Virus record (IMG/VR): IMGVR_UViG_2671180427_000015 | Location: 1-19,461 of that record | Strand: one strand, 5' to 3' | DNA length: 19,461 bases | DNA from: a virus | Lineage: Duplodnaviria > Heunggongvirae > Uroviricota > Caudoviricetes | Part shown: piece after piece, positions 1 to 16,776 of the stretch | Layout: every line of letters starts with the position of its first letter | Position numbering within the stretch: the first letter of the stretch is position 1 | The notes under the pieces: generated by a model | What the model saw: only the letters and a program-made list of their open reading frames with translations | Databases searched by the model: none | Told to the model about the DNA's origin: nothing | Translations under genes and position numbers: made by a program

Positions 1-159
1 CACATCACCTTCTGCTGCAATCGCCTGCATCAGGGTATAAGGGGTTATGGCCACCGGACTACCAAACGGCTGCCAGCCCTCTTTCAGTTTGTGTGTCAGC
101 TTTTCCGCAAGATCTGACGGCGACGCCGCCCTGACAACATCATAATGTTTAATCGACAT
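1..159 (-). CDS. Hypothetical prophage late-region protein, 5' part only (53 codons; runs off the window start)
   Basis: Minus-strand ATG at 157..159 preceded by GGGAGAA Shine-Dalgarno; open to window edge; translation MSIKHYDVVRAASPSDLAEKLTHKLKEGWQPFGSPVAITPYTLMQAIAAEGDV. Not in the ORF track because it is incomplete. Confidence 0.5.
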   Translation of the reverse strand, partial: MSIKHYDVVRAASPSDLAEKLTHKLKEGWQPFGSPVAITPYTLMQAIAAEGDV

Positions 160-702
160 CGAATTTCTCCCGTGTACAGGAACAGAGTTAAAAAGCCGGA
201 ACCGGAATCAAATCACAGGATGACCATCTGCCAGTGGCAGGTCATAAAAAAAAGGCCGCGCCATGCGCAGCCAGAACTCACAAGGAAAATGATAGAAGGA
301 AATAACATTAGTGATGTACGCATGGCGCCTCCCGCTAAGTTCTGCAATGATCAAACAGAACTCGCTACGTGCCCTTAAAACTCGATCATTTAGCCCCTCC
401 AAGGAGGATTCACCATGCGGTTGGTTTTTTAATAAACAGTAAACAAAAAAGTCAAGAATTATTCATTCTGTTCTTTCATCATCGGCCACAGCAATACCAC
501 AATGCCGCAGACCAGAGCGCCATCAGTCAGTACCAACATTATCCTGCTGGTGAAATCCATCATCACCATCACTAAAAGCAGGATCACAACAGCAAGCAGA
601 CACAGTTTATAAAACAATGTTCAGAAAACGCATTCAGCATGCCTAAGGTTCTATTCCTACGAATAGCCAACTTGCAACTTAAAATATTATTTATGCAGCC
701 AA

Positions 703-1461
703 TTAAATTCTGGTCCTTACAATATCAACCTGAAGATTCTTATCTTGTGCTGATTGATAAATCACAAACCTTTTACTACCTGCATTGAAAGAAGTAGACA
801 AAACCAGACAATTATCATAACGAGCAAGAACATAATACCAACCATCATTATAATTAATCATTTCATATTCTTTCTTAAACTGTGGTTTGTAATATCCTGT
901 CAGAAATGAAAAAAGCCAGAAATATGCCACAAAAGCAATCATCACAATCTCAAAAAAATGTTTTTTTATAAATGGCTTATCATAGAAGCATGATACCGAT
1001 AAAAATCGCCCATAAGATCTTATCGAAATTGTAACCGCCAGCGCAATCGCTGCTGACAGTAGCAAAAGAGGTACCTGAATCTTCTGTCTCAATATAGAAA
1101 ACTCAATAATTGCCGGCACAAACAATAATTCCACAGCAAAATAAAGGCGAAATACATTTAGCTCTTGCATAGAATGTTTTCTTTTCACTGCGAAAAAGAA
1201 TACAACACCAATACCCCAACCGATAAGAAATATAGCAATGACGATAACTGCAAAAAATAAACTTCTGGCAACATCATCAACACCTGCACCTACAATCCAC
1301 CATGGGAAGCCGTAGTAAAAAGAAGTACCCCATCCATAGAAATAAGCACTCCCCCATCCAAGGCATCCCATGTAGGCAATAAAAAGTGAAGAACTCCTGA
1401 GCAGCGCACCATCCTTCATAACCACCCCAATACAAGATGATAACATTGGCTTACAACTCAT
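703..1461 (-). CDS. Polytopic inner-membrane protein of unknown function (about 5 hydrophobic helices plus a ~60-aa soluble C-terminal tail); moron in the late operon
   Basis: 252-aa ORF in markedly AT-rich DNA just downstream of Q/pR' on the same strand; several long hydrophobic stretches (e.g. LFFAVIVIAIFLIGWGIGVVFFFAV, FFEIVMIAFVAYFWLFSFL). No clear Shine-Dalgarno at the first ATG; true start may be an internal Met (e.g. MKDGALL). Confidence 0.55.
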   Translation of the reverse strand: MSCKPMLSSCIGVVMKDGALLRSSSLFIAYMGCLGWGSAYFYGWGTSFYYGFPWWIVGAGVDDVARSLFFAVIVIAIFLIGWGIGVVFFFAVKRKHSMQELNVFRLYFAVELLFVPAIIEFSILRQKIQVPLLLLSAAIALAVTISIRSYGRFLSVSCFYDKPFIKKHFFEIVMIAFVAYFWLFSFLTGYYKPQFKKEYEMINYNDGWYYVLARYDNCLVLSTSFNAGSKRFVIYQSAQDKNLQVDIVRTRI

Positions 1462-1627
1462 AACAAAAGCAATTCAATGCCGTCAAGAGGTTACAGGCTA
1501 AAAAAACTCTATTACATTGCAGTCAGCATGTTTACTACACAAATACAATTCAGAGCATAAAAACTACTCGGCGGCAGGTTATTGAGACTCATCAATGACA
1601 TGTAAAAAACGCCCATTATTGGTGTCA

Positions 1628-1656
1628 AGTTTCCCCAAAGTTATTCAAAAAGTCAA
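1628..1656 (-). promoter_or_regulatory. pR'-like late promoter with Q-utilisation region
   Basis: Minus strand reads TTGACT-17 nt-GAAACT then TTGACACCAATAATGGGCG, collinear with my recollection of lambda pR' (TTGACT...TAAATT TTGACTCAACGATGGG); lies 40 nt downstream of the Q stop. The -10 hexamer is degenerate. Confidence 0.45.
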
Positions 1657-1698
1657 TATTATGCCGTTAATATGTTGCCATCCGTGGCAATCATGGCG

Positions 1699-2322
1699 CT
1701 AACGTGTGATCGCATTCAAAATGTTGTCTGCGATTGACTCTTCCTTGTGGCATTGCACAACCAGAGCGTCATACAGCGGCTTAACAGTGCGTGACCAGGT
1801 GGGTTGGGTAAGGTTTGGGATTAGCATCGTCACAGCGCGATATGCGGCGCTTGCTGGCATTCTTGAATAACCGACGCCTTTACATCTTCCGCACTCTTTC
1901 TCAGCAACTATCCCCCACTGCTCTGTTTTGGCTATATCAACCGCACGGCCTGTACCGTGGCAATCTCTGCATCTTGCGCCCGGCGTAGCGGCACTACGGC
2001 AATAATCCGCATAAGCGAATGTTGCGAGCACTTGCAGTACCTTTGCCTTAGTATTTCCTTCAAGCTTTGCCACGCCACGGTATTTCCCCGATACCTTGTG
2101 TGCAAATTGCATCAGATAGTTGATAGCCTTTTGTTTGTCGTTCTGGCTGAGTTCGTGCTTACCACAGAATACAGCCATTCCGAATCCGGCTTGTGATTGC
2201 GCCATCCCCATAGCAGCCATCACATCAGTACCGGAAAGAGAGTCAGAAGCCGTGGCCCGTGGTGAGTCGCTCATCATCGGGCTTTTTGGCGAATGAAATT
2301 TAGCTACGCTTTCGAGTCTCAT
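1699..2322 (-). CDS. Q: Late-gene antiterminator Q
   Basis: 207-aa translation matches recalled lambda Q over its length; sits immediately upstream of the pR'-like promoter and overlaps the ninI stop by 4 nt. Confidence 0.9.
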
Positions 2323-2984
2323 GCGCCTTCTCCCTGTACCTGAATCAATGTGAGATTTCCGCAGAACACTGCCCCAGTATCGATATACATCTGGTTGGCA
2401 AATTTGAGTGGTTTCACTGCTGGCGTATGACCAAAGATAAACGTGTCCGCGCCTTTAATTTCTTTAACGATCCCGTCTTGTGAGTTGCTGATTCGTTCGC
2501 GGTTCCAGATTACCTGCTGATGATCAACTGGCTTTCCAAATTCGTATTCGTCACAAGGATAATCGGCGTGGCAGATGACATATTTTTTACCTTTGCTCAC
2601 CAGTTCGATGATTAACGGAAGTTCTTCTGCTTTATGGGCAAGAGCTTTAGCCAGAATTTCTTTGTCGTAATCGAGATTAAAGAACCAGCCACCGCCATTA
2701 AGCAGCCAGTGATTAACGTTTCCACGCTCTGATAAGCCATCAATCATCATTTGCTCATGGTTTCCACGTACAGCTCTGAACCAGGGGAATGTGATTAATT
2801 CCAGGCATTCAACGTTCTCTGCACCACGATCAACCAAATCGCCCACCGAGATAAGCAGGTCTTTTTTGTTGTCGAATCCAATCGTATCCAGTTTGTTCAT
2901 CAGGTTCGTGTAGCATCCGTGCAGATCGCCAACTACCCAAATATTTCGGTATTTGCTGCCATCAATTCTTTCGTAGATATTCAT
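2319..2984 (-). CDS. ninI: NinI (Nin221) Ser/Thr protein phosphatase
   Basis: 221 aa; PPP-family metallophosphatase motifs visible in translation (GDLHG, GDLVDRG, GNHE); matches recalled lambda NinI. Confidence 0.9.
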
Positions 2985-3595
2985 GCAGCCTCACTTCTGC
3001 TGTTTCGCAGTTTTTTAAGTTTCTGTTGATACTCCGCCTTGATGGTCCTGCACTCTTCGACAGTCCAGCGATGGCGGTTATGGTTTGATTCGATTTCGTC
3101 TACTGCTTCCTGCCCGATGCGGCTAATCAGTTCGACGCGATACGGAACGAGATTTCCGCTTTTGTGCTGGTTGCACACCACGCATTGCTTGTGAATATTG
3201 CGTTCATCAAATCGGAGTTGAGGTGCCGCAGCAGTTGTCCGGTAATGTCCGGCATCCCACTGAGCAGACGTGAGCGTTCCGCACGAGATACATGGTAAGT
3301 CGCGGTCTCTTTCTCTGATGAAGGCGTTTACGGCTTGTTGGGCTTGTTTAATCCAGTAACTGCGGGGCTTTAAGGCGAGTTTTCGAATCTTAAGTTTATC
3401 TTTCTGTTTCTGCTCCTCTCGTCGTCGTTTCTTCTCTGCTGCTTTTTCCGCTTTTTCGCGTTCTTTACTTCGTCGTTCGAGTGCTATCTTGGTTCCACAC
3501 TCTGGAGAGCACCACCACTGATTAGCGAATGCAGGGTGAAACCATTCCCGACATTCATCGTTTTTACATCGTCTTCGCGCTGGTTTAGCCATCAT
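2981..3595 (-). CDS. ninG: NinG (Rap) recombination-associated structure-specific endonuclease
   Basis: 204 aa, Cys-rich N-terminus and lysine/glutamate-rich linker; matches recalled lambda NinG. Directly abuts ninI, so lambda ninH is absent. Confidence 0.9.
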
Positions 3596-3755
3596 CTTCT
3601 TCCTCGTGCATCGAGCTATTCGAATCGCTCATCAGCTCTGCACAGCAGTGCTCACACACGTGAACTTCCAGCACATGCAGCTTCTGACCGCAATTAGCGC
3701 ACGTTAAAGCCCGCTCGACGCTTTCTTGTTCGTAACTTCGATTTGGGTCAATCAC
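3585..3755 (-). CDS. ninF: NinF-like small protein
   Basis: Translation ...[37 protein letters not shown]... matches recalled lambda NinF. Start placed at GTG 3753..3755 (GAGGA 8 nt upstream, GTGA overlap with ninE stop); the longer ORF to 3797 is the alternative. Confidence 0.65.
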
Positions 3756-3934
3756 CTTGTATTCCTCGCACGATGTCTTAGCCACCGGATATCCCACAGG
3801 TGAGCCGTGTAGTTGAAGGTTTTTACGTCAGATTCTTTTGGGATTGGCTTGCGTTTATTTCTGGAGCGTTTCGTTGGAAGGTATTTGCAGTTTTCGCAGA
3901 TTATGTCGGTGATGCTTCGTCGCTGTCGTCTCAT
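3752..3934 (-). CDS. ninE: NinE-like protein
   Basis: 60-aa translation [60 protein letters not shown] matches recalled lambda NinE; start chosen inside the 90-aa track ORF, overlapping the methyltransferase stop. Confidence 0.8.
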
Positions 3935-4458
3935 GCAGCCCTCCTGACGCCCTGCCCGATCGCCATCAATGCCGCTTTGGATACGGTAGTAAACATCCGT
4001 CGAGGACTGATGAACGGTCGCCAAATCAGCAGCATGGAGCCTTTGCTGTTTCCCTTCTTCTCCAGCCCTGTCGATGGTTCGATAAAATTAATCCGTCCAT
4101 CAGTGATAATACGAACTTCGTCAACACTCTCCAGAGCCTTGCTGAACCATCCGACAGACATATCCTCTGGCACAAGCATCACTACCGTCTGTCGCTGTTG
4201 TATACACTGCTCAGCGGCTTTTTCCACCCACGGCCTGATATTGCTGTACGGTGGGTTATTCCAGATTGCACCGTGGCTTACCCACTCAGAATTGAGCGCG
4301 TCGTCGTCCTCAGTTAGCCAGTGAGCGCACAGAGCGTTTTTGTCGCTCGCTGCCGAATCCAGCCAGAATCCAAACTCAATATCCAGTGCATCAAAAAGCC
4401 AAAGCGGCGTTTGCCAGCAGTCCTTGTCGTGTGCTGGCGTATTTGATTTGATAGTCAT
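3931..4458 (-). CDS. Orphan phage Dam-like DNA N6-adenine methyltransferase (occupies the lambda ninC/ninD position)
   Basis: Translation contains the N6-adenine MTase catalytic motif NPPY ([10 protein letters not shown]) and a WQTPxxLF-type N-terminal motif; start at ATG 4456..4458 in an ATGA overlap with the ninB stop. Confidence 0.7.
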
Positions 4459-4895
4459 GCAGCCCGATCTCCCCATCGCGCTTTCCATTCGAGAGCCAGT
4501 CGCGCTTCGTCTGACCACTTAACGCCACGCTCTGTACCGAATGCCTGTATAAGCTCTAATAGCTCCGCAAATTCGCTTACACGCATCCTGCTGGTTGACT
4601 GGCCTATTACCACAAAGCCATTCCCGGCAAGGTTAGGAACAACATCCTGCTGCTTTAATGCTGCGGTAAACACACACTTCCAGCTTTCTGCATCCAGCCA
4701 GCGACCATGCCATTCAACCTGACGAGAGACGTCACCTAAGCAGGCCCATAGCTTCCTGTTTTGGTCTAAGCTGCGGTTGCGTTCCTGAATGGTTACTACG
4801 ATTGGTTTGGTTGGGTCTGGAAGGATTTGCTGTACTGCGTGAATAGCGTTTTGCTGATGTGCCGGAGATCGAATTTCAAAGGTTAGTTTTTTCAT
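4455..4895 (-). CDS. ninB: NinB (Orf) recombination mediator
   Basis: 146 aa from MKKLTFEIRSPAHQQ..., matching recalled lambda NinB; GGAGAGGG Shine-Dalgarno upstream; the track ORF begins 6 codons earlier. Confidence 0.85.
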   Translation of the reverse strand: MKKLTFEIRSPAHQQNAIHAVQQILPDPTKPIVVTIQERNRSLDQNRKLWACLGDVSRQVEWHGRWLDAESWKCVFTAALKQQDVVPNLAGNGFVVIGQSTSRMRVSEFAELLELIQAFGTERGVKWSDEARLALEWKARWGDRAA

Positions 4896-4901
4896 GACTT
4901 C

Positions 4902-4932
4902 CCTCTCCCCCAAATAAAAAGGCCTGCGATTA
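4902..4932 (-). terminator. Intrinsic terminator, tR2-like, between ren and ninB
   Basis: On the minus strand a GC-rich 7-8 bp stem (GGCCTGC/GCAGGCC, loop GGTAATC) followed by TTTTTATTT. Confidence 0.6.
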
Positions 4933-4968
4933 CCTGCAGGCCTGTGATTAGCTCAGTGATGTAGATGG

Positions 4969-5259
4969 TCATCTTTTAACTCCATATACCGCCAATATCC
5001 GTTTCATCGTGGCACTCTGGCGACACTCCTTAAAAATCAGGTTCGTGCTCATCTTTCCTTCCCGTTCTTCCTTGGTAGCAAACCGGTAATACACCGTTCG
5101 CCAGACCTTACCTTCGATAACCAGAAGACCTGCCCGTGCCATTTTAGCCGCGGCCTGATTTATGCTGGTTACTGTTGCGCCTGTTAGCGCGGCAACGTCC
5201 GGCGCACAGAAGCTATTATGCGTCCCCAGGTAATGAATAATTGCCTCTTTGCCCGTCAT
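4969..5259 (-). CDS. ren: Ren
   Basis: 96-aa translation matches recalled lambda Ren; positioned between P and tR2/ninB. Confidence 0.85.
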   Translation of the reverse strand: MTGKEAIIHYLGTHNSFCAPDVAALTGATVTSINQAAAKMARAGLLVIEGKVWRTVYYRFATKEEREGKMSTNLIFKECRQSATMKRILAVYGVKR

Positions 5260-5957
5260 ACACTTGCTCCTTTCAGTCCGAACTTAGCTTTAATTTCTGC
5301 GATCTTCGCCAGCGCCTGAACACGATTTAGAGGTCTGCCGCCCATGACAGGAAGTTGTTTTATTGGTTCAGGTATCGTCTCACCACGGTTAATTCGCGCT
5401 GTCATACAGGTCAGTTCATCGGCAGCCTTGCGTCGTAATTCCGCGTCAGTCAGCGCATTGGCCCGCATGTTCTGGTACAGGTTGGTAACCAGCCAGTAGT
5501 GCGCGTTCGATTTCCACGGATAAGACTCTGCATCCGGATACAGGCCTCGCTTCCGGCAATACTCGTAAACCATATCAACCAGCTCGCTGACGTTTGGCAG
5601 TCCGGCGATAACGGATGCTTCTTCCCGGCACCATGCAACAAACTGCCCGGGTGATGGCAGAAATGGTCGATTCTGCCGACGGGCTACGCGCATTCCTGCG
5701 TTAACCTGTTCCATTGTGGTGATCCCGTTTTCCCGGAAAGCCAGAACCCACTGGCGGCGGATTTCGTTCAGTTCGTTCTGGTCACGGTTAGCCAGGCTCG
5801 CCGGGAAAGTTGCCAGTAACTGGCTGAACACACCGTTGATGATCTGCGCTACCTGCTGTACCTGAGGCTTTTCGTCGTACTGTTCCGGCATGTTGTTGGC
5901 GATCCGACGCATCTGCTCACGGTCAAAGTTAACCATCTGTGCGGCGATGTTTTTCAT
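5256..5957 (-). CDS. P: Replication protein P (DnaB helicase loader)
   Basis: 233-aa translation matches recalled lambda P; 4-nt overlap with O stop. Confidence 0.9.
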   Translation of the reverse strand: MKNIAAQMVNFDREQMRRIANNMPEQYDEKPQVQQVAQIINGVFSQLLATFPASLANRDQNELNEIRRQWVLAFRENGITTMEQVNAGMRVARRQNRPFLPSPGQFVAWCREEASVIAGLPNVSELVDMVYEYCRKRGLYPDAESYPWKSNAHYWLVTNLYQNMRANALTDAELRRKAADELTCMTARINRGETIPEPIKQLPVMGGRPLNRVQALAKIAEIKAKFGLKGASV

Positions 5958-6853
5958 AAATCCACCCCGTAAATCCAGTCAGTGTTTGTCAGGTCGAGTT
6001 TTGGTTTGCAGGCTGTCACGCCTGCCTGTTGCTTGTTACGGTTGATTTCGAGCTGGGTCCACTTGTCGCGGAGTTTGGCCGGGCTCAGCACGTTACCGGA
6101 CCAGAAGTTGTCCTGGCATGCCCAGCGGAACAGTACACACATGTCGCGATGGTTACGTCCGTCACGTTCACGCATCAGGCGGATATCGTTAGCCCACCCT
6201 GCAAAATTCGGTTTTCTGGCTGATGGCGCGATGGTCTTCACCATGTCAAACATCCACTCTGCGGCGGTCAGATCTTCTGCTGTCCCCCACCTGCTGCCGC
6301 TCTGAATTGCAGCATCTGGTTTCTCCACAGAAAGATCGTTTTCTGGCTGGTCAGAGGATTCGCCTGAATTCTCTGACGAATAATCTTTTCTTTTTTCTTT
6401 TGTAATAGTGTCTTTTGTGTCCCCCTGTTTTGAGGGATAGCAATCCCTCAATTTGAGGGATGTTTTATCCCTCGTTTTAGGGGATTTTCCCTCGTTTTGA
6501 GGGATACACCATTCTGAGATGTTTTTATTTGGTCCAAACATGCCGCCTTGCTGCTTGATAATATTCATTCTGACGAGTTCTAACTTGGCTTCATTGCACC
6601 GTTTGACGGGTAACTTTGTAATCTCGCTAAGTTGAGAATCGGTGATTCTGTCCATTGGTTTATTCCACCCATAGGTTTTACGCAGAATGGCAAGCAGCAC
6701 TTTAAACTGTCGCTTGGTCAGATCTGCGCCTGAATAAGCCTCAAGCAGCATATTTGATAGTCTGACGTAACCATCATCGAGATCTGCCACATTACGCTCC
6801 TGTTCGGCAAAGTTACCTCTGCCGAAGTTGAGTATTTTTGCTATATTTGTCAT
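5954..6853 (-). CDS. O: Replication initiator O
   Basis: 299-aa translation matches recalled lambda O; contains ori iterons internally. Confidence 0.9.
   Translation of the reverse strand: MTNIAKILNFGRGNFAEQERNVADLDDGYVRLSNMLLEAYSGADLTKRQFKVLLAILRKTYGWNKPMDRITDSQLSEITKLPVKRCNEAKLELVRMNIIKQQGGMFGPNKNISEWCIPQNEGKSPKTRDKTSLKLRDCYPSKQGDTKDTITKEKRKDYSSENSGESSDQPENDLSVEKPDAAIQSGSRWGTAEDLTAAEWMFDMVKTIAPSARKPNFAGWANDIRLMRERDGRNHRDMCVLFRWACQDNFWSGNVLSPAKLRDKWTQLEINRNKQQAGVTACKPKLDLTNTDWIYGVDL
6379..6506. repeat. Origin of replication (ori lambda type): four iterons plus adjacent AT-rich segment inside the O gene
   Basis: Four tandem ~20-bp units each containing an inverted TCCCTC...GAGGGA pair between about 6418 and 6506, flanked at 6379..6417 by a T-rich stretch (TCTTTTCTTTTTTCTTTTGTAATAG). 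Confidence 0.8.
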
Positions 6854-6885
6854 AATGACTCCTGTGGATTGATCCAGTAATTCCC

Positions 6886-7182
6886 TCAGAATTGCATATC
6901 AATTTGCTTAAAATCCTCGGTGGCAGCCGGGGATTTTTTCTTTGTGATTTCATCAAGCGCATACTTAAAAGCCCTGCTAATCGGACTGATGTCTGATGCC
7001 ATTCCGAAAGCACACAAGACCGAAGCAATAAATCTCCAGTCCGTTCTGCTTATCTTCGATTCATGACAGCCAATCATCTTTGCCAAACCGCGCTGTGTAA
7101 GCGTTGATAGGTTGATGAGTAAATCTGTTTCTGCGCGATCAACGTCACGCTGTGATAGTTTGCTGTAACTTGTTCGTTCCAT
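6886..7182 (-). CDS. CII-family lysogeny transcriptional activator (not the lambda allele)
   Basis: 98 aa; C-terminal ...KKKSPAATEDFKQIDMQF resembles lambda CII C-terminus (...KKRPAATERSEQIQMEF); located directly downstream of cro and nutR. Confidence 0.7.
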   Translation of the reverse strand: MERTSYSKLSQRDVDRAETDLLINLSTLTQRGLAKMIGCHESKISRTDWRFIASVLCAFGMASDISPISRAFKYALDEITKKKSPAATEDFKQIDMQF

Positions 7183-7268
7183 TTCTTAATATTTCCAATA
7201 GTGAATTGTTAGTTGACAGGTATGCGTGGAAACGCATATGGCCTTAGTTGGTCAGATATCTTGGGACT

Positions 7269-7313
7269 CGCTTTTCAGCGACGTAGGACGAATGTCCGTT
7301 GTTACAAAGAGCG
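7269..7313 (-). promoter_or_regulatory. nutR-like N-utilisation site (boxA plus boxB hairpin)
   Basis: Minus strand reads CGCTCTTTGTAACAA (boxA-like) then, 18 nt later, CGCTGAAAAGCG (short stem with GAAAA-containing loop), between cro and cII. Confidence 0.5.
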
Positions 7314-7323
7314 GCTCCGCTTA

Positions 7324-7539
7324 TTAAGCGGCTTTGTGTTCCGGCGGGAACACGTCATCAAGACTTACTTTTGCGCCTAACTTGTTTAGGCACGCAACAA
7401 GAGCACGGCATGTTTTAAGGTCTGGGAAGCGACGACCAGATTCCCAATGTCCGATAGCTCCCTGTGTGCATCCAACTGCTTTAGCAAGTTTCGTTTGAGA
7501 GATATTCAGTGACTCTCGATATTTTCGTAGGTTGCTCAT
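7324..7539 (-). CDS. cro: Cro-like HTH repressor (not the lambda allele)
   Basis: 71 aa from internal Met (MSNLRKYRESLNISQTKLAKAVGCTQGAIGHW...) with GGAGGA Shine-Dalgarno at 7543..7548; divergent from cI across an operator region. The 128-aa track ORF would overlap the operators and cI. Confidence 0.75.
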   Translation of the reverse strand: MSNLRKYRESLNISQTKLAKAVGCTQGAIGHWESGRRFPDLKTCRALVACLNKLGAKVSLDDVFPPEHKAA

Positions 7540-7570
7540 ATGTCCTCCGTAGTAACCACGAATAAAAAAA

Positions 7571-7639
7571 TACAATATGTACTCACCAAACACAAGTAAA
7601 AATACATATTGTGCATGGATGGTTCCAGTACAGAGCGTA
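7571..7639. promoter_or_regulatory. Right operator/promoter region (candidate OR sites with divergent pR and pRM)
   Basis: Three related 11-bp elements of form TAC-N5-GT(A/G): TACAATATGTA (7571..7581), TACATATTGTG (7603..7613), TACAGAGCGTA (7629..7639), lying between divergent cro and cI starts. Confidence 0.5.
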
Positions 7640-7656
7640 ATAATAAGGATATGAAA

Positions 7657-8310
7657 ATGAAATGGTATGAACTGGCTAGATCCAGAATGAAAGAGCTCGG
7701 CATAACTCAAGAGAAGTTAGCCGAAGAGCTAGGTATGACGCAGGGTGGAATTGGACACTGGTTGCGCGGATCTCGTCATCCATCTCTTAGTGATATTGGT
7801 GTGGTGTTTAAATACCTTGGTATTGATAACATATCATTCAACCACGACGGGACATTTTCACCTGTTGGCGAATACTCATCGGCCCCAGTTAAAAAACAAT
7901 ATGAGTACCCTGTTTTTTCTCATGTTCAGGCTGGGATGTTCTCTCCAGAACTCAGAACCTTTACCAAAGGCGATGCGGAGAGATTGGTAGGCACAACCAA
8001 AAAAGCCAGTGACTCTGCATTCTGGCTTGAGGTTGAAGGTAACTCAATGACCGCACCAACAGGTTCCAAACCTAGTTTTCCTGACGGGATGTTAATTCTG
8101 GTTGACCCTGAGCAAGCTGTTGAGCCCGGCGATTTCTGCATAGCCAGACTTGGTGGTGATGAATTTACCTTCAAGAAACTGATCAGGGATAGCGGTCAGG
8201 TGTTTCTACAGCCACTAAACCCACAATACCCAATGATCCCATGCAATGAGAGTTGTTCCGTTGTTGGGAAAGTTATCGCTAGTCAGTGGCCTGAAGAGAC
8301 GTTTGGGTGA
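7657..8310 (+). CDS. cI: CI prophage repressor, mosaic: non-lambda N-terminal HTH domain fused to lambda-type S24 (LexA-like) C-terminal domain
   Basis: C-terminal ~130 aa ([19 protein letters not shown]...EVEGNSM...FKKL...[12 protein letters not shown]) matches recalled lambda CI; N-terminal ~85 aa is unrelated to lambda CI. Start placed at ATG 7657 (AAGGA 7 nt upstream); the track ORF starts at 7609. Confidence 0.85.
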
Positions 8311-8380
8311 TGAAGGGCTAAATGTCTCCTAATAAAAACAGCAATCATTTGAAATTATTAATAATTATAGAGGTTTAGTC

Positions 8381-9379
8381 TTGGAAATCAGCACGGCGGT
8401 TATTCATTCCGAAGAAGATGCTTTGCGTTTTGTTGAGATGTACATCGCTGGGCAAGATCTTCCTGATGGAATATCATTTGAAGGGTGGCCTAACTTAACC
8501 TTCCGTCTTACTGGTGACAAATTTCATGGCAGTTTGACTCCTTCTGTCATGAAGGGTTTTGTTGAAATGCAGGCCCAAATAAACCGAGCTTATGCATTGT
8601 TAAAGTACGGAGTTCCTGACCCAAGAAAGCTTTCAAAAGAAGAGAAGGAAGCTATCGAAATTCAGGTGAATGTTGAGAATGGCTCGTCCTTGATAGAAGT
8701 TAATATGGATGGGTTCATGGGTGAGGTTATACAAACTGCGGTGAGTAAAGTGGGCCCTCAAGAGATCGTTATTACAGTTTTAGGGGTCGCTCTTATATGG
8801 GGCGGCGTCGTCCTATTCAAAAAATACCTAGAAGACCGCAAAGAGATTCGCATGGCAGAAGTAAAAAGCGAGTCTGAGCGTGAACACCTTGCGACCATGC
8901 GCTTCATGTCTGAGCAGGAAACAAAACGAAGTGAATTATTGACTCAGATTATTAGCGAAAAACCCAAGCTAGACAACATGGAAAGACTTGCTCATGACGC
9001 AAAAACCGACATAGTTAAATCATTTGTCAAGGCTGATACAGCTCAGATTGATGGCGTTGTATTGGATGCAGATCTATCCAAAACCCTCACTACAAATGCA
9101 AGGCGGAAATCAATGGAGATCCGCCTTGATGGAAATTATCGCATTGAAAAGGTTGACTCCACTGATCCAGAGAGCTTCAAAGTGCAAGTGAGAAATGTTG
9201 ATTCCGATCTAAGAATATCGTGCATAGTACAAGATGTTTTTCTCGACGCATCCGAGCATAAAAAAGCTCTTCAGCAAGCTGAGTGGGATAGAAAACCAGT
9301 TCATTTGTCAATCAACGCAAAAGAACTAGATGGTGAAATAAAGTCCGCGATAATACTTTATGTCAAAGAGATAACATAA
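8381..9379 (+). CDS. Immunity-region cargo protein of unknown function with one central hydrophobic helix (in the position lambda uses for rexA-rexB)
   Basis: 332-aa ORF with TTG start 7 nt after AGAGG; AT-rich; 70 nt downstream of cI on the same strand and followed by an intrinsic terminator; hydrophobic segment IVITVLGVALIWGGVVLF mid-protein; no similarity to RexA/RexB that I can recognise. Confidence 0.6.
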   Translation: MEISTAVIHSEEDALRFVEMYIAGQDLPDGISFEGWPNLTFRLTGDKFHGSLTPSVMKGFVEMQAQINRAYALLKYGVPDPRKLSKEEKEAIEIQVNVENGSSLIEVNMDGFMGEVIQTAVSKVGPQEIVITVLGVALIWGGVVLFKKYLEDRKEIRMAEVKSESEREHLATMRFMSEQETKRSELLTQIISEKPKLDNMERLAHDAKTDIVKSFVKADTAQIDGVVLDADLSKTLTTNARRKSMEIRLDGNYRIEKVDSTDPESFKVQVRNVDSDLRISCIVQDVFLDASEHKKALQQAEWDRKPVHLSINAKELDGEIKSAIILYVKEIT

Positions 9380-9386
9380 TCCTCAT

Positions 9387-9412
9387 CCCGGCCTCAGCGC
9401 CGGGTTTTCTTT
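9387..9412 (+). terminator. Intrinsic terminator ending the cI-cargo transcription unit
   Basis: CCCGGC-CTCAGC-GCCGGG hairpin followed by TTTTCTTT, 8 nt after the ORF stop. Confidence 0.6.
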
Positions 9413-9601
9413 GCCTCACGATCGCTTCACCTAAAAACACATAACCAATTGTATTTATTTGAAAATAAATAGATACAACTCACTAAACCACGCAATTCTG
9501 ATCTCTCCTTACATCGCCGAGGCAATACACCCATGCTAAAAAACAATACTATTAAATACAAAGCGTTGTAAAAAACCACCTCGTTTTAAGAACAAATTGT
9601 A

Positions 9602-9630
9602 TTGATAAAGCAAAATACATATCGTACTAT
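9602..9630 (+). promoter_or_regulatory. pL-like promoter with overlapping operator
   Basis: TTGATA -17 nt- TACTAT; the element TACATATCGTA (9616..9626) matches the OR-type TAC-N5-GTA sites and overlaps the spacer/-10. Confidence 0.45.
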
Positions 9631-9676
9631 TTAACCATCAGCAGGACGCTGGAAGCCAAACGGAACAAACTGGCAG

Positions 9677-9722
9677 GCTCTTTAAACAACGTCGAACTCT
9701 CGACTACGTGGCTGAAAAGCCA
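9677..9722 (+). promoter_or_regulatory. nutL-like site (boxA plus boxB hairpin)
   Basis: GCTCTTTAAACAA (boxA-like) followed 19 nt later by TGGCTGAAAAGCCA (4-bp stem, TGAAAA loop), upstream of N. Confidence 0.5.
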
Positions 9723-9819
9723 GATCACCCAACCACATGAGCTGTGGGATGCAATGCCGAAGCAACCGTCTAGGAGTAGCTTCGAGATTGCATCGCCAAA
9801 GTTTATTCGGGAGGAATCT

Positions 9820-10092
9820 ATGTCCAGAAAAACAGAATTTAAAGGCACCGCAGCTTCTCGCCGTAGAGCTCGTCGCGCAAATCTGCAAAGTCAGGAGGCG
9901 ATTAGCTCCGACAAACTACACAGGCCAACCCCCTCACGAGTGGTCTTGCAATGCAAACGCAAACCAGCAATGAGAGCAGAAGTAATAACACTGACAACGT
10001 TGACCAGAAAATATGAAGGCTCAACTTGTCTTCCAAATGTAGCTCTTTACGCGGCAGGCTACAGGAAATCAAAACAACTGACAGCAAGGTGA
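9820..10092 (+). CDS. N: N-like transcription antiterminator (arginine-rich motif; not lambda N)
   Basis: 90 aa from ATG 9820 (GGGAGG upstream); N-terminal arginine-rich motif GTAASRRRARRANLQ; first gene after pL/nutL. C-terminus resembles what I recall of the P22 gene 24 product, but that recollection is unverified. Confidence 0.7.
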   Translation: MSRKTEFKGTAASRRRARRANLQSQEAISSDKLHRPTPSRVVLQCKRKPAMRAEVITLTTLTRKYEGSTCLPNVALYAAGYRKSKQLTAR

Positions 10093-10150
10093 CTTGTGTT
10101 GATCGCCAGAAAATGAAATTAGGCATCAAACCACTTATTTGAGGTGATAT

Positions 10151-10237
10151 ATGGAAGAAGAATTTGAAGAGTTCGAAGAGCATCCTCAGGATGTGATGGA
10201 ACAATACCAGGACTATCCTTATGACTACGACTATTGA
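10151..10237 (+). CDS. Small acidic protein, lambda orf28-like
   Basis: 28 codons (MEEEFEEFEEHPQDVMEQYQDYPYDYDY) with GAGGTG Shine-Dalgarno; overlaps the ral start as lambda orf28 does. Confidence 0.5.
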   Translation: MEEEFEEFEEHPQDVMEQYQDYPYDYDY

Positions 10238-10445
10238 TAAAAATCAATGGTGTGGACAATTCAAGCGATGCAATGGATGCAAGCTGCAATCGGAATGCAT
10301 GGTTAAGCCTGAAGAAATGTTTCCTGTAATGGAAGATGGGAAATATGTCGATAAATGGGCAATACGAACGACGGCAATGATTGCCAGAGAACTTGGTAAA
10401 CAGAACAACAAGGCTGCCTGGTGGTGGCCTTTATTTTTGGCATAA
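10221..10445 (+). CDS. ral: Ral restriction-alleviation protein
   Basis: First 66 aa match recalled lambda Ral (MTTTIDKNQWCGQFKRCNGCKLQSECM...); this ORF reads on for 8 more codons (WWWPLFLA) before the stop. Confidence 0.8.
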   Translation: MTTTIDKNQWCGQFKRCNGCKLQSECMVKPEEMFPVMEDGKYVDKWAIRTTAMIARELGKQNNKAAWWWPLFLA

Positions 10446-10603
10446 ACAACAGAATAAACACTGCACTGTGTATTCATTCCAACAAGTGAATACACGGAGC
10501 AATGTCGCTCGTAACCAAACAGGAGCCGACTTGTTCTGATTATTGGAAATCTTCTTTGCCCTCCAATATGAGGGCGATTTTTTATCTGTGAGGATATGAA
10601 CAG

Positions 10604-10972
10604 ATGTCAAACATCAAAAAATACATCATTGATTACGACTGGAAAGCATCAATAGAAATTGAAATCGACCATGACGTAATGACAGAGGAAAAACTTCACC
10701 AGATTAATAATTTCTGGTCAGACTCTGAATACCGACTCAATAAACACGGCTCTGTATTAAATGCTGTATTAATCATGCTGGCGCAACATGCTCTGCTTAT
10801 AGCAATTTCAAGCGACTTAAATGCATATGGTGTTGTGTGTGAGTTCGACTGGAATGATGGAAATGGTCAGGAAGGATGGCCTCCAATGGATGGTAGTGAA
10901 GGAATAAGAATTACCGATATCGATACATCAGAAATATTTGATTCAGATGATATGACTATCAAGGCCGCCTGA
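10604..10972 (+). CDS. ea10: Ea10 (Ssb)-like early protein
   Basis: 122-aa translation matches recalled lambda Ea10 in size, position (between ral and cIII) and sequence. Confidence 0.7.
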   Translation: MSNIKKYIIDYDWKASIEIEIDHDVMTEEKLHQINNFWSDSEYRLNKHGSVLNAVLIMLAQHALLIAISSDLNAYGVVCEFDWNDGNGQEGWPPMDGSEGIRITDIDTSEIFDSDDMTIKAA

Positions 10973-11044
10973 GCGCGGCGTTACCGCATACCAATTACGC
11001 TTCACTCGAGGCGTTTTTCGTTATGTATAAATAAGGAGCACACC

Positions 11045-11209
11045 ATGCAATATGCCATTGCAGGGTGGCCTGTTGCTGGCTGCCCTTCCGAATCTTTACT
11101 TGAACGAATCACCCGTAAATTACGTGACGGATGGAAACGCCTTATCGACATACTTAATCAGCCAGGAGTCCCAAAAAATGGATCAAACAATTATGGCTAT
11201 CCAGACTAA
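11045..11209 (+). CDS. cIII: CIII (FtsH/HflB protease inhibitor)
   Basis: 54-aa translation [54 protein letters not shown] with AAGGAG Shine-Dalgarno; not in the ORF track (<60 aa). Confidence 0.85.
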   Translation: MQYAIAGWPVAGCPSESLLERITRKLRDGWKRLIDILNQPGVPKNGSNNYGYPD

Positions 11210-11321
11210 ATTCACTATCGCCACTTTTATTGGCGATGAAAAGATGTTTCGTGAGGCCGTCGACGCTTATAAAAAATGGATATTAATACTGAAACTGAGA
11301 TCAAGCAAAAGCATTCACTAA
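11178..11321 (+). CDS. kil: Kil (host cell-division inhibitor)
   Basis: 47-aa translation [47 protein letters not shown], the in-frame 3' part of the 89-aa track ORF; overlaps the cIII 3' end as in lambda. Confidence 0.8.
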
Positions 11322-11396
11322 CCCCCTTTCCTGTTTTCCTAATCAGCCTGGCATTTCGCGGGCGATATTTTCACAGCCATTTTCAGGAGTTCAGCC

Positions 11397-11693
11397 ATGA
11401 ACGCTTATTACATTCAGGATCGTCTTGAGGCTCAGAGCTGGGCGCGTCACTACCAGCAGATCGCCCGTGAAGAGAAAGAGGCAGAACTGGCAGACGACAT
11501 GGAAAAAGGCCTGCCCCAGCACCTGTTTGAATCGCTATGCATCGATCATTTACAACGCCACGGGGCCAGCAAAAAAGCCATTACCCGTGCGTTTGATGAC
11601 GATGTTGAGTTTCAGGAGCGCATGGCAGAACACATCCGGTACATAGTTGAAACCATTGCTCACCATCAGGCTGATATTGATTCAGAGGTATAA
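11397..11693 (+). CDS. gam: Gam (RecBCD inhibitor)
   Basis: 98-aa translation matches recalled lambda GamS; CAGGAG Shine-Dalgarno. Confidence 0.9.
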
Positions 11694-11698
11694 AACGG

Positions 11699-12484
11699 AT
11701 GAGTACAGCACTCGCAACGCTGGCAGGGAAGCTGGCTGAACGTGTCGGCATGGATTCTGTCGACCCACAGGAACTGATCACCACTCTTCGCCAGACGGCA
11801 TTTAAAGGTGATGCCAGCGATGCGCAGTTCATCGCATTGCTGATCGTCGCCAACCAGTACGGCCTTAATCCGTGGACGAAAGAAATTTACGCCTTCCCTG
11901 ATAAGCAGAACGGCATTGTTCCGGTGGTGGGCGTTGATGGCTGGTCCCGCATCATCAATGAAAACCAGCAGTTTGATGGCATGGACTTTGAGCAGGACAA
12001 TGAATCCTGTACATGCCGGATTTACCGCAAGGACCGCAATCATCCGATCTGCGTTACCGAGTGGATGGATGAATGCCGCCGCGAACCATTCAAAACCCGC
12101 GAAAGCAGAGAAATCACGGGGCCGTGGCAGTCGCATCCCAAACGGATGTTACGGCATAAAGCCATGATTCAGTGTGCCCGTCTCGCCTTCGGATTTGCTG
12201 GTATCTATGACAAGGATGAAGCCGAGCGCATTGTCGAAAATACCGCATACACTGCAGAACGTCAGCCGGAACGCGACATCACTCCGGTTAACGATGAAAC
12301 CATGCAGGAGATTAACACTCTGCTGATTGCCCTGGATAAAACATGGGATGACGACTTATTGCCGCTCTGTTCCCAGATATTTCGCCGCGACATTCGCGCA
12401 TCGTCAGAACTGACACAGGCCGAAGCAGTGAAAGCTCTTGGATTCCTGAAACAGAAAGCCACTGAGCAGAAGGTGGCTGCATGA
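11699..12484 (+). CDS. bet: Bet (Red-beta single-strand annealing protein)
   Basis: 261-aa translation matches recalled lambda Bet throughout. Confidence 0.95.
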
Positions 12485-13161
12485 CACCGGACATTATCCT
12501 GCAGCGTACCGGAATCGACGTGAGAGCTGTCGAACAGGGGGATGATGCGTGGCACAAATTACGGCTCGGCGTCATCACCGCTTCAGAAGTTCACAATGTG
12601 ATAGCAAAGCCCCGCTCAGGAAAGAAGTGGCCTGACATGAAAATGTCCTACTTCCACACCCTGCTGGCTGAGGTTTGCACCGGTGTGGCTCCGGAAGTTA
12701 ATGCTAAGGCGCTGGCCTGGGGAAAACAGTACGAGAACGACGCCAGAGCCCTGTTTGAGTTCACTTCCGGCGTGAATGTTACTGAATCCCCGATCATCTA
12801 TCGCGACGAAAGTATGCGCACCGCCTGCTCTCCCGATGGTTTATGCAGTGACGGCAACGGCCTTGAACTGAAATGCCCGTTTACCTCCCGGGATTTCATG
12901 AAATTCCGGCTCGGTGGTTTCGAGGCCATAAAGTCGGCTTACATGGCCCAGGTGCAGTACAGCATGTGGGTAACGCGAAAAGATGCCTGGTACTTTGCCA
13001 ACTATGACCCACGAATGAAGCGTGAAGGCCTGCATTATGTCGTGGTTGAGCGGGATGAAAATTACATGGCGAGTTTTGACGAGATGGTGCCGGAGTTCAT
13101 CGAAAAAATGGACGAGGCACTGGCTGAAATTGGTTTTGCATTTGGGGAGCAATGGCGATGA
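12481..13161 (+). CDS. exo: Exo (Red-alpha 5'-3' exonuclease)
   Basis: 226-aa translation matches recalled lambda Exo; 4-nt overlap with bet. Confidence 0.95.
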
Positions 13162-13340
13162 AGCATCCTCACGATAATATCCGGGTAGGCACGATCACTT
13201 TCGTCTACTCCGTTACAAAGCGAGGCTGGGTATTTCCCGGCCTTTCTGTTATCCGAAATCCCCTGAAAGCACAGCGGCTGGCTGAGGAGATAAATAATAA
13301 ACGAGGGGCTGTATGCACAAAGCATCTCCTGTTGAGTTAA
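13158..13340 (+). CDS. orf60a: orf60a-like protein
   Basis: 60 aa from the second in-frame ATG (ATGA overlap with exo stop); matches recalled lambda orf60a. Confidence 0.6.
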
Positions 13341-13504
13341 GAACGAGCATTGAGATGGCACATAGCCTTGCTCAAATTGGAGTCAGGTTTGTGCCAATAC
13401 CAGTAGAAACAGACGAAGAATTTCATACGTTAGCCACATCCCTTTCACAAAAGCTGGAAATGATGGTGGCGAAAGCAGAAGCAGATGAGAGAGACCAGGT
13501 ATGA
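13313..13504 (+). CDS. orf63: orf63-like protein
   Basis: 63-aa ORF in the lambda orf63 position; sequence consistent with recollection. Confidence 0.6.
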   Translation: MHKASPVELRTSIEMAHSLAQIGVRFVPIPVETDEEFHTLATSLSQKLEMMVAKAEADERDQV

Positions 13505-13580
13505 CAACCACGGAATGCATTTTTCTGGCAGCGGGCTTCATATTCTGTGTGCTTATGCTTGCCGACATGGGACTTGTTCA

Positions 13581-13796
13581 ATGACACCTCAGCAGGAAAA
13601 CGCCCTTCGCAGCATTGCCCGTCAGGCTAATTCTGAAATCAAAAAAGCCAGACAGCAGTTTCCGGATAAAAACGTCGATGACATTTGCCGTAGCGTACTG
13701 AAGAAGCACCGCGAAACGGTAACGCTGATGGGATTCACACCGACTCATTTAAGCCTGGCAATCGGCATGTTAAACGGCGTCTTTAAGGAACGATGA
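13581..13796 (+). CDS. orf61: orf61-like protein
   Basis: 71 aa from MTPQQENALRSIARQANSEIKKARQQF...; placed at the internal ATG, which overlaps (ATGA) the stop of a 27-codon upstream ORF. Confidence 0.55.
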   Translation: MTPQQENALRSIARQANSEIKKARQQFPDKNVDDICRSVLKKHRETVTLMGFTPTHLSLAIGMLNGVFKER

Positions 13797-13817
13797 ACAT
13801 GAAAAGCAAAATCATCA

Positions 13818-13842
13818 GGGAGCTACAGGCTCCTTTTTTATT
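13818..13842 (+). terminator. Intrinsic terminator (tL-type) after orf61-like
   Basis: GGGAGC-TACAG-GCTCC(U) hairpin followed by TTTTTTATT. Confidence 0.55.
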
Positions 13843-13894
13843 ATTCGCATTCACCCTCAAGCGTATTAACCAACAATTCAGGGATTAATGGAAG

Positions 13895-14116
13895 ATGGCA
13901 GACATCATTGATTCAGCATCAGAAATTGAAGAATTACAGCGCAACACAGCAATAAAAATGCGCCGCCTGAACCACCAGGCTATATCTGCCACTCATTGTT
14001 GTGAGTGTGGCGATCCGATAGATGAACGAAGACGCCTGGTCGTTCAGGGTTGTCGGACTTGTGCAAGTTGCCAGGAGGATCTGGAGCTTATCAGTAAACA
14101 GAGAGGTTCGAAGTGA
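13895..14116 (+). CDS. TraR/DksA-family C4 zinc-finger protein
   Basis: 73 aa with two CxxC pairs (CCECG...CRTCASC) in the spacing typical of the TraR/DksA zinc finger. Confidence 0.65.
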   Translation: MADIIDSASEIEELQRNTAIKMRRLNHQAISATHCCECGDPIDERRRLVVQGCRTCASCQEDLELISKQRGSK

Positions 14117-14520
14117 GCGAAATTAACTCTCAGGCACTGCGTGAAGCGGCAGAGAAAGCCGGTGAAGATAAGTGGCAGGCTAAAAAAATAAATGGTGATT
14201 TTTTCGTTATTCGTCACGGTAGTTATACAAGACAGCATGGCTACACATCGTATCAACCCATTGCGGAGATTGATTGTAAGCCAGTCCGGGATTTTGTTGC
14301 CAAGGCTAATCCGGCTACCGTGCTGGAATTACTGGATGAACTGGAAGCAGCAAAAAAGCGCATTGCAGAACTGGAAGCGCGGGAAATACTGCTCCCGGAA
14401 CGTAGCAGCATGCTTCATCGAACAGATTTTCACGATGATTACCAAACGGTAATGGCATACAAAGTTTCTGAAGTCATCGATGCAATCCGCGCTACTGGCA
14501 TTCGCATCAAAGGAGAGTGA
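14113..14520 (+). CDS. Ea22-like protein (shorter than lambda Ea22)
   Basis: GTG start in a GTGA overlap with the upstream stop, GAGAGG Shine-Dalgarno; N-terminus MSEINSQALREAAEKA... and C-terminus ...GIRIKGE agree with recalled lambda Ea22 termini; central coiled-coil-like LELLDELEAAKKRIAELEARE. Confidence 0.6.
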   Translation: MSEINSQALREAAEKAGEDKWQAKKINGDFFVIRHGSYTRQHGYTSYQPIAEIDCKPVRDFVAKANPATVLELLDELEAAKKRIAELEAREILLPERSSMLHRTDFHDDYQTVMAYKVSEVIDAIRATGIRIKGE

Positions 14521-14521
14521 G

Positions 14522-15277
14522 ATGATTCACTACCACGGTGGGCCTATTACTCCTGATACGTGCGCAATGAGAGCATGGAAAGGGCGACATGCGTTTATCA
14601 GTTTTGCGCATTCAGGCCAGATCAATCTCGCGGCTGAATACTGTCAGTCGTTCGCGCTGGACAACGGTGCATTCACCGCCTGGAAAGCAGCTGGCAAAAA
14701 CAAAATCGACTGGAGCGATTACTACGAGTTTGTTGCTCGCTGGAAGAATCACCCAGGATTCGATTTTGCCATTATCCCGGATATTATTGATGGCGGAGAG
14801 GAGGAAAATGATGCGCTTCTGAATGAGTGGCCTCACGGAAAACTAGCTGGCGTTCCAGTGTGGCACATGAATGAAAGTGACGCGCGATTTATTCATTTGT
14901 GCAATGAGTTTCCGCGAGTGGCTATCGGTAGTTGTGGCGACTATGACGTAAAGCGCCCAACTCTTGCGGTAGCCAGAATGAAAGACCTGATTCGTCACAT
15001 TGTTGATGGGCATGGTCAGCCGGTTACGAAACTACATGGATTGCGCATGTTAAATCCGCTGATATTCACAAAATTACCCTTAGCCAGCGCAGATAGTACG
15101 AACGTCGCTCGAAACATCGGTATTGATAAAGCCTGGTCTGGGGCTTATGCACCTGCAAGTAAAGAGACACGCGCAGCATTAATGGTAGAACGGATTGAGG
15201 CACACAATAGCCCTGGTTCTCTTGCGTATTGTGAACAACGCGACCGCTTTGAAATGCAATTGCAACTAGCAGTTTAA
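14522..15277 (+). CDS. Candidate queuine tRNA-ribosyltransferase-fold protein (DpdA-like 7-deazaguanine DNA transglycosylase candidate)
   Basis: 251 aa from ATG 14522 (AGGAG 6 nt upstream). Five collinear segments resemble recalled E. coli Tgt motifs: LDNGAF (TDSGGF), FAIIPD (MIFDEC), VAIGS (YAVGG), LHGLRML (YLMGVG), ADSTNVARN (FDCVMPTRNARN). No zinc-binding C-terminal subdomain. Functional call unverified. Confidence 0.5.
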   Translation: MIHYHGGPITPDTCAMRAWKGRHAFISFAHSGQINLAAEYCQSFALDNGAFTAWKAAGKNKIDWSDYYEFVARWKNHPGFDFAIIPDIIDGGEEENDALLNEWPHGKLAGVPVWHMNESDARFIHLCNEFPRVAIGSCGDYDVKRPTLAVARMKDLIRHIVDGHGQPVTKLHGLRMLNPLIFTKLPLASADSTNVARNIGIDKAWSGAYAPASKETRAALMVERIEAHNSPGSLAYCEQRDRFEMQLQLAV

Positions 15278-15287
15278 GGACTAACAA

Positions 15288-16085: not shown

Positions 16086-16199
16086 TAGTGAACTATTATA
16101 TCTATTTGTATTAAAAGAGTTTTTATAAAATAAATCTCCCAAAGCATGTAAAAACACTGTTAATCTTAACGTGTGTGAAACGTGAAGAGAGGTGTTGAA

Positions 16200-16481: not shown

Positions 16482-16501
16482 TAATATGAACAAGTAACTA
16501 T

Positions 16502-16557: not shown

Positions 16558-16569
16558 TGGCGATGATAA

Positions 16570-16752: not shown

Positions 16753-16776
16753 GCGTGTAATTGCGGAGACTTTGCG

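Follow-up and report, generated by a model that had tools for sequence, protein, structure and literature searches.

A probably functional pR'/qut late promoter of distinct allelic form, followed by a cargo insert in place of tR', in a lambdoid prophage with a lambda-type Q gene

The window analyzed here, i.e., the whole stretch of 19,461 nucleotides (positions 1 to 19,461 of IMG/VR virus record IMGVR_UViG_2671180427_000015), contains a lambdoid prophage that occupies the lambda attachment site, where its int gene lies, and that has a complete early region; ybhC lies at 18178-19461(+) and the integrase gene adjoins it. The late direction is the minus strand, along which the genes for NinG, a Ser/Thr phosphatase, and the Q antiterminator follow one another. 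The Q gene, at 1699..2322(-), belongs to the lambda-Q family (Pfam PF03589, E = 4e-58) and encodes a protein of 207 aa, of which 202 (98%) are identical to lambda Q, the changes being A51V, L135Q, R138I, V140A, and V205I. On the same strand as Q, the -35 hexamer of a pR' promoter begins 43 nt past the Q stop codon, and because the two Q proteins are identical at 202 of 207 residues, the likeness of this promoter to lambda pR' is attributed to homology and not to chance. Beyond the promoter lie an AT-rich leader, two cargo genes, and a small RNA (sRNA) gene, all on the minus strand. The next late-strand gene, whose 5' part was recognized by sequence reading at 1..159(-) and which runs past the window edge, has an N-terminus that we take to resemble the DUF1737 domain; its counterpart in related loci is annotated as either a DUF6645 protein or a SASA-family esterase and is followed by holin and endolysin genes. 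The late genes past the window, as read in loci with an identical module, are on the same strand and encode holin, endolysin, spanin, and terminase. Window positions are converted to coordinates of the EDL933 genome (NZ_CP008957) by adding 3,573,726. The EDL933 region at 1.215-1.265 Mb is a different prophage with a Q of another family.

For sigma-dependent pausing and Q loading, the textbook case is lambda pR'/qut, and the corresponding site in the window is a 53-nt string, TTGACT-TTTTGAATAACTTTGGG-GAAACT-TGACACC-AATAAT-GGG-CG-TTTTTT, at 1656..1604(-), which is present as a single copy in the window and gave 0 matches in 200 shuffles. For comparison, lambda 43800-45600 was retrieved and an exact alignment was made to lambda 44429-44829, in which homology is unbroken from the Q gene through the GGG after the pause element; the proposal of the initial annotation that the minus strand carries a homologue of lambda pR', with TTGACT and a 17-nt spacer, is thus borne out. 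The lambda counterpart reads TTGACT-TATTGAATAAAATTGGG-TAAATT-TGACTC-AACGAT-GGG, and relative to it the window has one difference upstream of the -35, three in the spacer, two in the -10 (T-12G and T-8C), and, in the stretch that joins the -10 to the pause element, one substitution and one inserted nucleotide; the alignment reveals no similarity past about +9. No second, canonical lambda pR' occurs in the whole window at three or fewer mismatches. Briefly, the -35 hexamer TTGACT (1651-1656(-)) is identical to that of lambda and invariant across related loci, and the 17-bp spacer TTTTGAATAACTTTGGG (1634-1650(-)) contains a Q binding element (QBE) in which the blocks TTGAATAA and TGGG are intact. 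The -10 hexamer, placed by the alignment to lambda at 1628-1633(-), reads GAAACT where lambda has TAAATT, and the early transcribed region has AATAAT (1615-1620(-)) where lambda has AACGAT, both as initially described; AATAAT matches TATAAT at 5/6 positions and is the predicted sigma-dependent, -10-like pause element. Upstream of it, the -35-like element TTGACA (1623-1628(-); TTGACT in lambda) is the predicted docking site of sigma region 4 for Q loading, a role taken from PMC9388147. The GGG discriminator-like triplet (1612-1614(-)) is kept as in lambda, and a T6 run (1604-1609(-), about +12..+17) lies at the expected pause site, the pause position being assigned by analogy with +16/+17 of lambda. 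From spacing only, transcription is predicted to start at A1620 or C1621(-), which corresponds to 3,575,346/7(-) in EDL933.

The constraints on these elements were assessed in a family set of 119 IMG/VR loci with a conserved Q gene end, plus the window. Family-wide conservation covers the -35, the QBE blocks, both the -35-like and -10-like elements, and GG(G), and TTGAATAA and TGGG are essentially invariant across its approximately 120 members, whereas the three spacer differences between the window and lambda fall at positions 2, 11, and 12, all of which vary freely. The QBE was judged by family conservation. According to PMC9388147 (Yin et al., 2022), Q-lambda recognizes, as a monomer, a site of 13 bp, in which it contacts positions 1-4 and 11-13; its arm tip (residues 133-137) touches sigma region 4, which is relocated to a -35-like element just before the -10-like pause element. 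The direct repeats of the QBE were also considered as a site for two Q molecules, and this idea was rejected because Q-lambda is, according to the same study, a monomer on a non-repeat site. In lambda, AACGAT occupies +1..+6, the GGG discriminator-like triplet follows, and the pause is at +16 (Strobel and Roberts, 2014, PMC4005639). The window departs from this arrangement in that the -35-like and -10-like elements are separated by 2 bp instead of the 1 bp of lambda, a spacing also found in four TTGACATC-AACGAT loci; in that the -35-like element is the consensus TTGACA and not TTGACT; and in that AATAAT is closer to consensus than AACGAT. The known parts of a Q-loading site are all present in the sequence, i.e., the QBE, the -35-like element, the pause element, and GGG, and the pause is probably somewhat stronger than in lambda. 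The 2-bp spacing may influence Q loading, as may the T-12G change, which adjoins the QBE.

In the family comparison, the Q changes R138I, V140A, and V205I co-occur with the AATAAT module. Co-evolution of the arm-tip changes (R138I and V140A) with the 2-bp spacing was considered and rejected, since the AATAAT module and the changes form a single lineage, so that linkage suffices for R138I, V140A, and V205I to travel with the module. The four TTGACATC-AACGAT loci have the 2-bp spacing and ordinary Q arms, with R138I and V140A absent.

The -10 hexamer GAAACT matches TATAAT at 3/6 positions, as against 4/6 for the lambda hexamer TAAATT; with the 5/6 match of TTGACT, the window promoter reaches 8/12 versus consensus, below the 9-of-12 threshold of the promoter scan, whereas lambda pR' reaches 9/12. 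Two early promoters of lambda provide a measure for these changes: pL is TTGACA-17-GATACT and pR is TTGACT-17-GATAAT, so that G at -12 is found in both and C at -8 in pL, both promoters having a -35 of the TTGAC type. Given the GATACT of pL, GAAACT is therefore only one base off, at a position where pR' already has A. Across the 119 IMG/VR loci and 67 loci with the AATAAT module, the -10 alleles are TAAATT, TAAGTT, TAGATT, and GAAACT, and only the A at -11 and the T at -7 are constant; GAAACT is found in 64 of the 67 IMG/VR and genome loci that carry the AATAAT pause module. The hexamer had been called degenerate, a term that overstates its difference from that of lambda: it retains the A at -11 and the T at -7, which never vary in the family, and T-12G and T-8C have a precedent in pL. 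Initiation is probably somewhat weaker than at lambda pR'.

Downstream of the predicted pause site, an AT-rich leader at 1420..1603(-) takes the place of lambda 6S/tR', and GC, about 0.50-0.55 in Q, drops to 0.29-0.44. A hairpin-plus-T-run scan, which recovered lambda tR' at -24.3 kcal/mol as positive control, detected no terminator in the 240-nt leader, the best candidate being a 49-nt AU-rich structure of -7.3 kcal/mol before a T7 run at 1500-1506; the replacement of 6S/tR' by AT-rich DNA without an obvious intrinsic terminator, pointed out in the initial annotation, is therefore upheld. The leader fold is no better than that of shuffles (z = 0.76), and a structured RNA or riboswitch was rejected, as there is neither a fold signal nor an Rfam hit. 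In the same scan, the first strong terminator is at +187 in 46 lambda-type loci, at +53 in 41 HK97/HK022-type loci, and at +1355..+1367 in 22 window-type loci, with about +1366 in the window itself. Because tR' is missing, pR' transcripts made without Q should run approximately 1.4 kb versus 53-194 nt, and the Q-independent transcript is thus probably much longer than in lambda; Rho-dependent or weak termination may occur within the leader. The loss of tR' predates the -10 change, because the same cargo accompanies a -10 of TAAATT in sister locus L073 and of TAAGTT in sister locus L118.

The cargo insert starts with a promoter-like site at 1437..1466(-), comprising TTGTTA, 18 nt, and a TG-extended TATCAT, which was found by the promoter scan and is also present in Escherichia phage Lambda_2B8. 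Cargo gene 1 (703..1419(-)) encodes a multi-pass membrane protein of 238 aa from the ATG at 1419, in an ORF that extends to 1461; the product corresponds to phrog_1521, phrog_14371, and phrog_17164 (unknown function) and has no match in Pfam, PADLOC, or NCBIfam, and the GC of the gene is 0.29-0.42 versus about 0.5 in the flanks. Cargo gene 2 (459..617(-)) encodes a DUF3927/TciB-like small membrane protein (PF13064, E = 3e-14; phrog_1470, category 'moron'). Morons of lambdoid phages are promoter-gene-terminator inserts in the late region, as known from comparative work on HK97 and HK022, and the insert has the corresponding sequence features, i.e., a promoter-like site, genes absent from lambda, low GC, and a terminator. 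The sRNA gene, at 243..448(-), resembles PasD/STnc100 and is matched over the full length of Rfam RF02076 (37.5 bits, E = 9e-7), a match below the gathering score of 47 bits. Neither the promoter scan nor sequence reading revealed a clear promoter before it. Its terminator, with a stem at 254-272(-) followed by T8, is the first strong one that the terminator scan finds after pR'. The EPEC sRNA PasD resembles STnc100 at the structural level only, and pasD has been placed at this position in NC_049952 and linked to lambda-type Q genes (bioRxiv 10.64898/2026.05.13.724894). From the location of pasD at this spot in NC_049952, together with the RF02076 match at 243-448, the terminator at 254-272 is therefore considered PasD-like. 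The HnrS sRNA (PMC13502914) was also considered and rejected, as it is located in other prophages and is not evident in the window. The structural novelty of the locus, as read from these annotations, is that tR' is absent and that a cargo insert and a PasD/STnc100-like sRNA occupy the interval between the predicted pause site and the terminator at about +1366.

Information regarding the distribution of the allele was obtained from a cultured phage, from complete bacterial genomes, and from a scan of one genome per species. The plaque-purified Escherichia phage Lambda_2B8 (NC_049952) has a 241-bp segment, covering the Q end, the promoter, and the leader, that is 100% identical to the window, and its downstream genes are those of the window; we assume that its late expression depends on the GAAACT promoter. 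Of 5426 complete E. coli genomes, 570 (approximately 10%) contain the 71-bp core, 555 of them at 99% identity or more, a count that may be inflated by clonal sampling, largely of EHEC. The carriers include O157:H7, O26, O103, O111, and O145. In O157:H7, the copy lies in a truncated, IS-ridden prophage remnant that adjoins ssrA and has no early region, and many of the 555 copies are therefore not under lytic selection; in strain PV15-279, the membrane-protein gene beside the module is frameshifted. In a 95-nt region, 63 of 70 collected copies are identical. When one genome per species was scanned for the AATAAT pause module, a prophage of Tatumella punctata JCM 8885 (locus L172) was found, whose Q, a member of the lambda-Q family, is only 52% identical. 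Its TTTGGG-(TAGATT)-TTGACACCAATAATGGG and T-run are the same as in the window apart from the hexamer, with a T5 run where the window has T6, and form a conserved island amid diverged DNA. Downstream, a canonical terminator lies about 50-70 nt past the start and is followed by two more terminators and then by holin, endolysin, and spanin genes. As the pause module is identical beside a Q of only 52% identity, the allele is considered an old conserved alternative and not a decayed lambda site; in a limited literature search, no published description of it was found. The initial annotation had further suggested that late transcription and Q loading may be wired differently: this stands for the end point of Q-independent transcription, which differs from that of lambda, whereas Q loading is probably retuned and not rewired, since the Q-loading parts are present and the same module accompanies a 52%-identical Q in Tatumella.

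Homology, conservation, and distribution were observed directly, as were the lack of a terminator hairpin and the occurrence in a viable phage, and from these we infer the start, the pause, Q loading, promoter strength, and transcript length. It is likely that 1604-1656(-) functions as pR'/qut, i.e., as the late promoter and Q-utilisation site of a lambda-Q-type prophage, in an allelic form of its own. In the mechanism that we propose, sigma-70 RNA polymerase would initiate from TTGACT-17-GAAACT at about A1620, sigma region 2 would then re-bind the near-consensus AATAAT-GGG, and the complex would pause near +16, within the T-run. From its conserved element in the spacer, Q would shift sigma region 4 to the neighboring TTGACA consensus and load onto the polymerase, which, once modified, would transcribe past every terminator downstream and reach the lysis and structural genes.

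A different interpretation is that the site is a non-functional relic of cryptic prophages, in which the -10 mutations are neutral and late transcription starts elsewhere. The -10 with only 3/6 consensus positions in a promoter below the scan threshold, the truncated, IS-ridden setting in O157:H7, and the frameshifted membrane-protein gene of PV15-279 are consistent with such decay, but the identical sequence is found in a plaque-purified phage, the window prophage, which also carries it, retains the whole early region and has int at the lambda attachment site, Q and all Q-loading elements are intact with 63 of 70 copies of the 95-nt region identical, and the two critical -10 positions are spared; decay is accordingly held to be highly unlikely. 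Alternatively, an overlapping promoter might have replaced pR' and bypass the pause element, using either AATAAT as -10 or the TTGACA at 1623-1628 with TTACAT at 17 bp. Although TTGACA is a perfect -35 and AATAAT a 5/6 -10, and although the TTGACA of Tatumella pairs with TATATT at 16 bp in an 11/12 promoter-like match, no usable -35 lies 16-18 bp from AATAAT in the window, and the hexamers 17-18 bp past TTGACA, TTACAT and TACATG, lack the -11 A or the -7 T and were unreported by the scan. With no adequate -10 after TTGACA in the window, an alternative promoter is unlikely; furthermore, a start past the pause element could not load Q, yet Q-type readthrough is required for the phage to pass the terminators, at least two in number, that precede the holin gene. 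The chance that the promoter has been replaced is therefore regarded as very slim.

A third interpretation adds to that of a functional pR'/qut site and does not compete with it. The -10 changes fit a tuning of promoter strength, possibly with exposure of the cargo to an unrepressed promoter as its cause, and pR', with no tR' between it and the cargo genes, may be a constitutive lysogen promoter of the membrane-protein/TciB-like/PasD unit at which T-12G and T-8C were selected to cut expression. The sister loci L073 and L118, which share the pause module and the cargo at 2-3% divergence and yet read TAAATT and TAAGTT, are suggestive of this, as are the 2 of 36 differences between the window and L073 that fall inside the 6-bp hexamer while the flanking Q-loading elements are unchanged (P about 0.006, a post hoc value from one lineage split). 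GAAACT is by far the commoner allele, although allele frequency is confounded by clonal EHEC genomes. Moreover, no clear promoter is seen before the PasD-like sRNA, and the PR' of Stx phages is constitutively active in the lysogen and is the source of a regulatory sRNA (PMC7547250), whereas the cargo insert has a promoter-like site of its own, and, given a good -35 as in lambda pL, a promoter is not necessarily weaker for having G at -12 and C at -8. Adaptive down-tuning is put forward as a tentative addition, which we consider less likely than not to be correct. A more specific extension, which we consider rather doubtful, is that the late promoter doubles as a lysogenic-conversion promoter, whose Q-independent transcript would cover the membrane and TciB-like proteins and end at the PasD/STnc100-like terminator, with the abundant, Hfq-bound PasD being at least partly the processed 3' end of the pR' transcript and GAAACT the selected setting. 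If this were true, PasD would be a long-range analogue of StxS.

The reading of the site as a functional pR'/qut allele does not overturn the known mechanism and provides a modest, testable refinement. The allele amounts to a natural experiment, with a near-consensus pause element, a -35-like consensus moved by 1 bp, a T-run, and a changed -10, and it distinguishes the parts of the site that are free to vary, i.e., the -10 sequence and the central part of the QBE, from those that are fixed. Its conservation spans E. coli and Tatumella, and approximately 10% of complete E. coli genomes carry it, the main EHEC serogroups among them. The loss of tR' predicts that two membrane-protein cargo genes, and possibly PasD, are transcribed in the lysogen from an unrepressed late promoter, which would be relevant to pathogen biology.

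Among known systems, lambda pR'/qut is similar to the window in that the site directly follows Q and has the same -35, 17-bp spacing, QBE blocks, and element order, whereas it differs in TAAATT, in AACGAT, in the 1-bp element spacing, and in a tR'/6S unit with its terminator at +187; the T6 run at the expected pause site distinguishes the window from lambda. The pR' modules of the HK97/HK022/P22 type, annotated as 'Qut site with 1-2 bp mismatch', share the Q family and the conserved Q-pR'-pause unit, with similarity between modules ending at about +8/+9, although they keep TAAATT and AACGAT and have a terminator at about +53. The Tatumella locus has the same order of TTTGGG-(hexamer)-TTGACA-CC-AATAAT-GGG and T-run after a lambda-Q-family gene, whereas its Q is only 52% identical, the spacer departs from that of the window in its upstream half, the -10 is TAGATT, and the layout of terminator and holin is classic. 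StxS, the PR'-tR' transcript of Stx phages (PMC7547250), exemplifies a late promoter that is constitutive in the lysogen and whose Q-independent transcript becomes an Hfq-binding regulatory RNA. The window is comparable in that the first terminator past pR' belongs to a PasD/STnc100-like sRNA, the link between pR' and the sRNA being putative; by contrast, StxS ends 258 nt past PR' and accompanies a Q of another family, whereas the terminator in the window is 1.37 kb away with two protein genes between. Finally, the insert is similar to lambdoid morons in being AT-rich, in having its own promoter-like site, small membrane-protein genes, and an end terminator, and in being absent from lambda, but it lies directly after the pause site, where it replaces tR', and not among the late genes downstream of tR'.

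Extra DNA has been inserted directly after the pause site in more than one event, because a fourth downstream module (AAGAAT-GGCAGATTTA...), found in the IMG/VR loci L058, L023, and L077, also lacks a promoter-proximal terminator, and the lambda tR' hairpin is not encountered before +869 in L058. In the late operon of phage Lambda_2B8 (L122), a mobile-element gene (8659-9618) is located between the esterase and holin genes, and a further terminator-like hairpin lies directly 5' of the holin gene; therefore, late expression in this plaque-forming phage must read through several obstacles.

The window, EDL933, and strain 122 have an unbroken copy of the membrane-protein cargo gene that follows the pause site, but in O157:H7 PV15-279 (L002, 12315-13056) this gene is annotated as frameshifted; it is dispensable in some hosts at least. 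The STnc100/PasD-like sRNA (window 243-448, minus strand) is represented by a full-length, sub-threshold STnc100 match (37.5 bits, E = 9e-7), and pasD, an sRNA gene of EPEC, occupies the same position in phage NC_049952 according to a 2026 preprint (bioRxiv 10.64898/2026.05.13.724894). The window shows no convincing dedicated promoter directly 5' of the sRNA, and thus the sRNA could be a processing product of a longer transcript. A small ORF (MRTSLMLFPSIIFLVSSGC...; window 213-347, minus strand) with a lipoprotein-like signal contains the terminator hairpin of the sRNA and is probably not a real gene. The ORF is located entirely within the sRNA.

The pause module is also found under other host labels. 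A prophage of Tatumella punctata JCM 8885 (L172, 5556-5930) shares the window's pause module and has a gene of the lambda-Q family; its -35-like TTGACA and a TATATT at a spacing of 16 bp constitute an 11/12 promoter-like match, from which the predicted start would lie 3' of the pause element, and its holin gene is preceded by three tandem terminators. An E. coli-type pR' module, identical over 95 nt, is present in a 3-kb contig (JAIITD010000172.1; L173) of a metagenome-assembled genome labelled Veillonella sp.; the contig is most likely an enterobacterial prophage fragment, either mis-binned or contaminating.

In comparison with lambda, the arm-tip region of the window's Q (residues 135-140; window 1903-1917, minus strand) carries L135Q, R138I, and V140A, which adjoin residues 133-137, the contacts of sigma region 4. 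R138I and V140A are confined to the lineage with the AATAAT module, and most members of the Q family share L135Q, which makes lambda the outlier.
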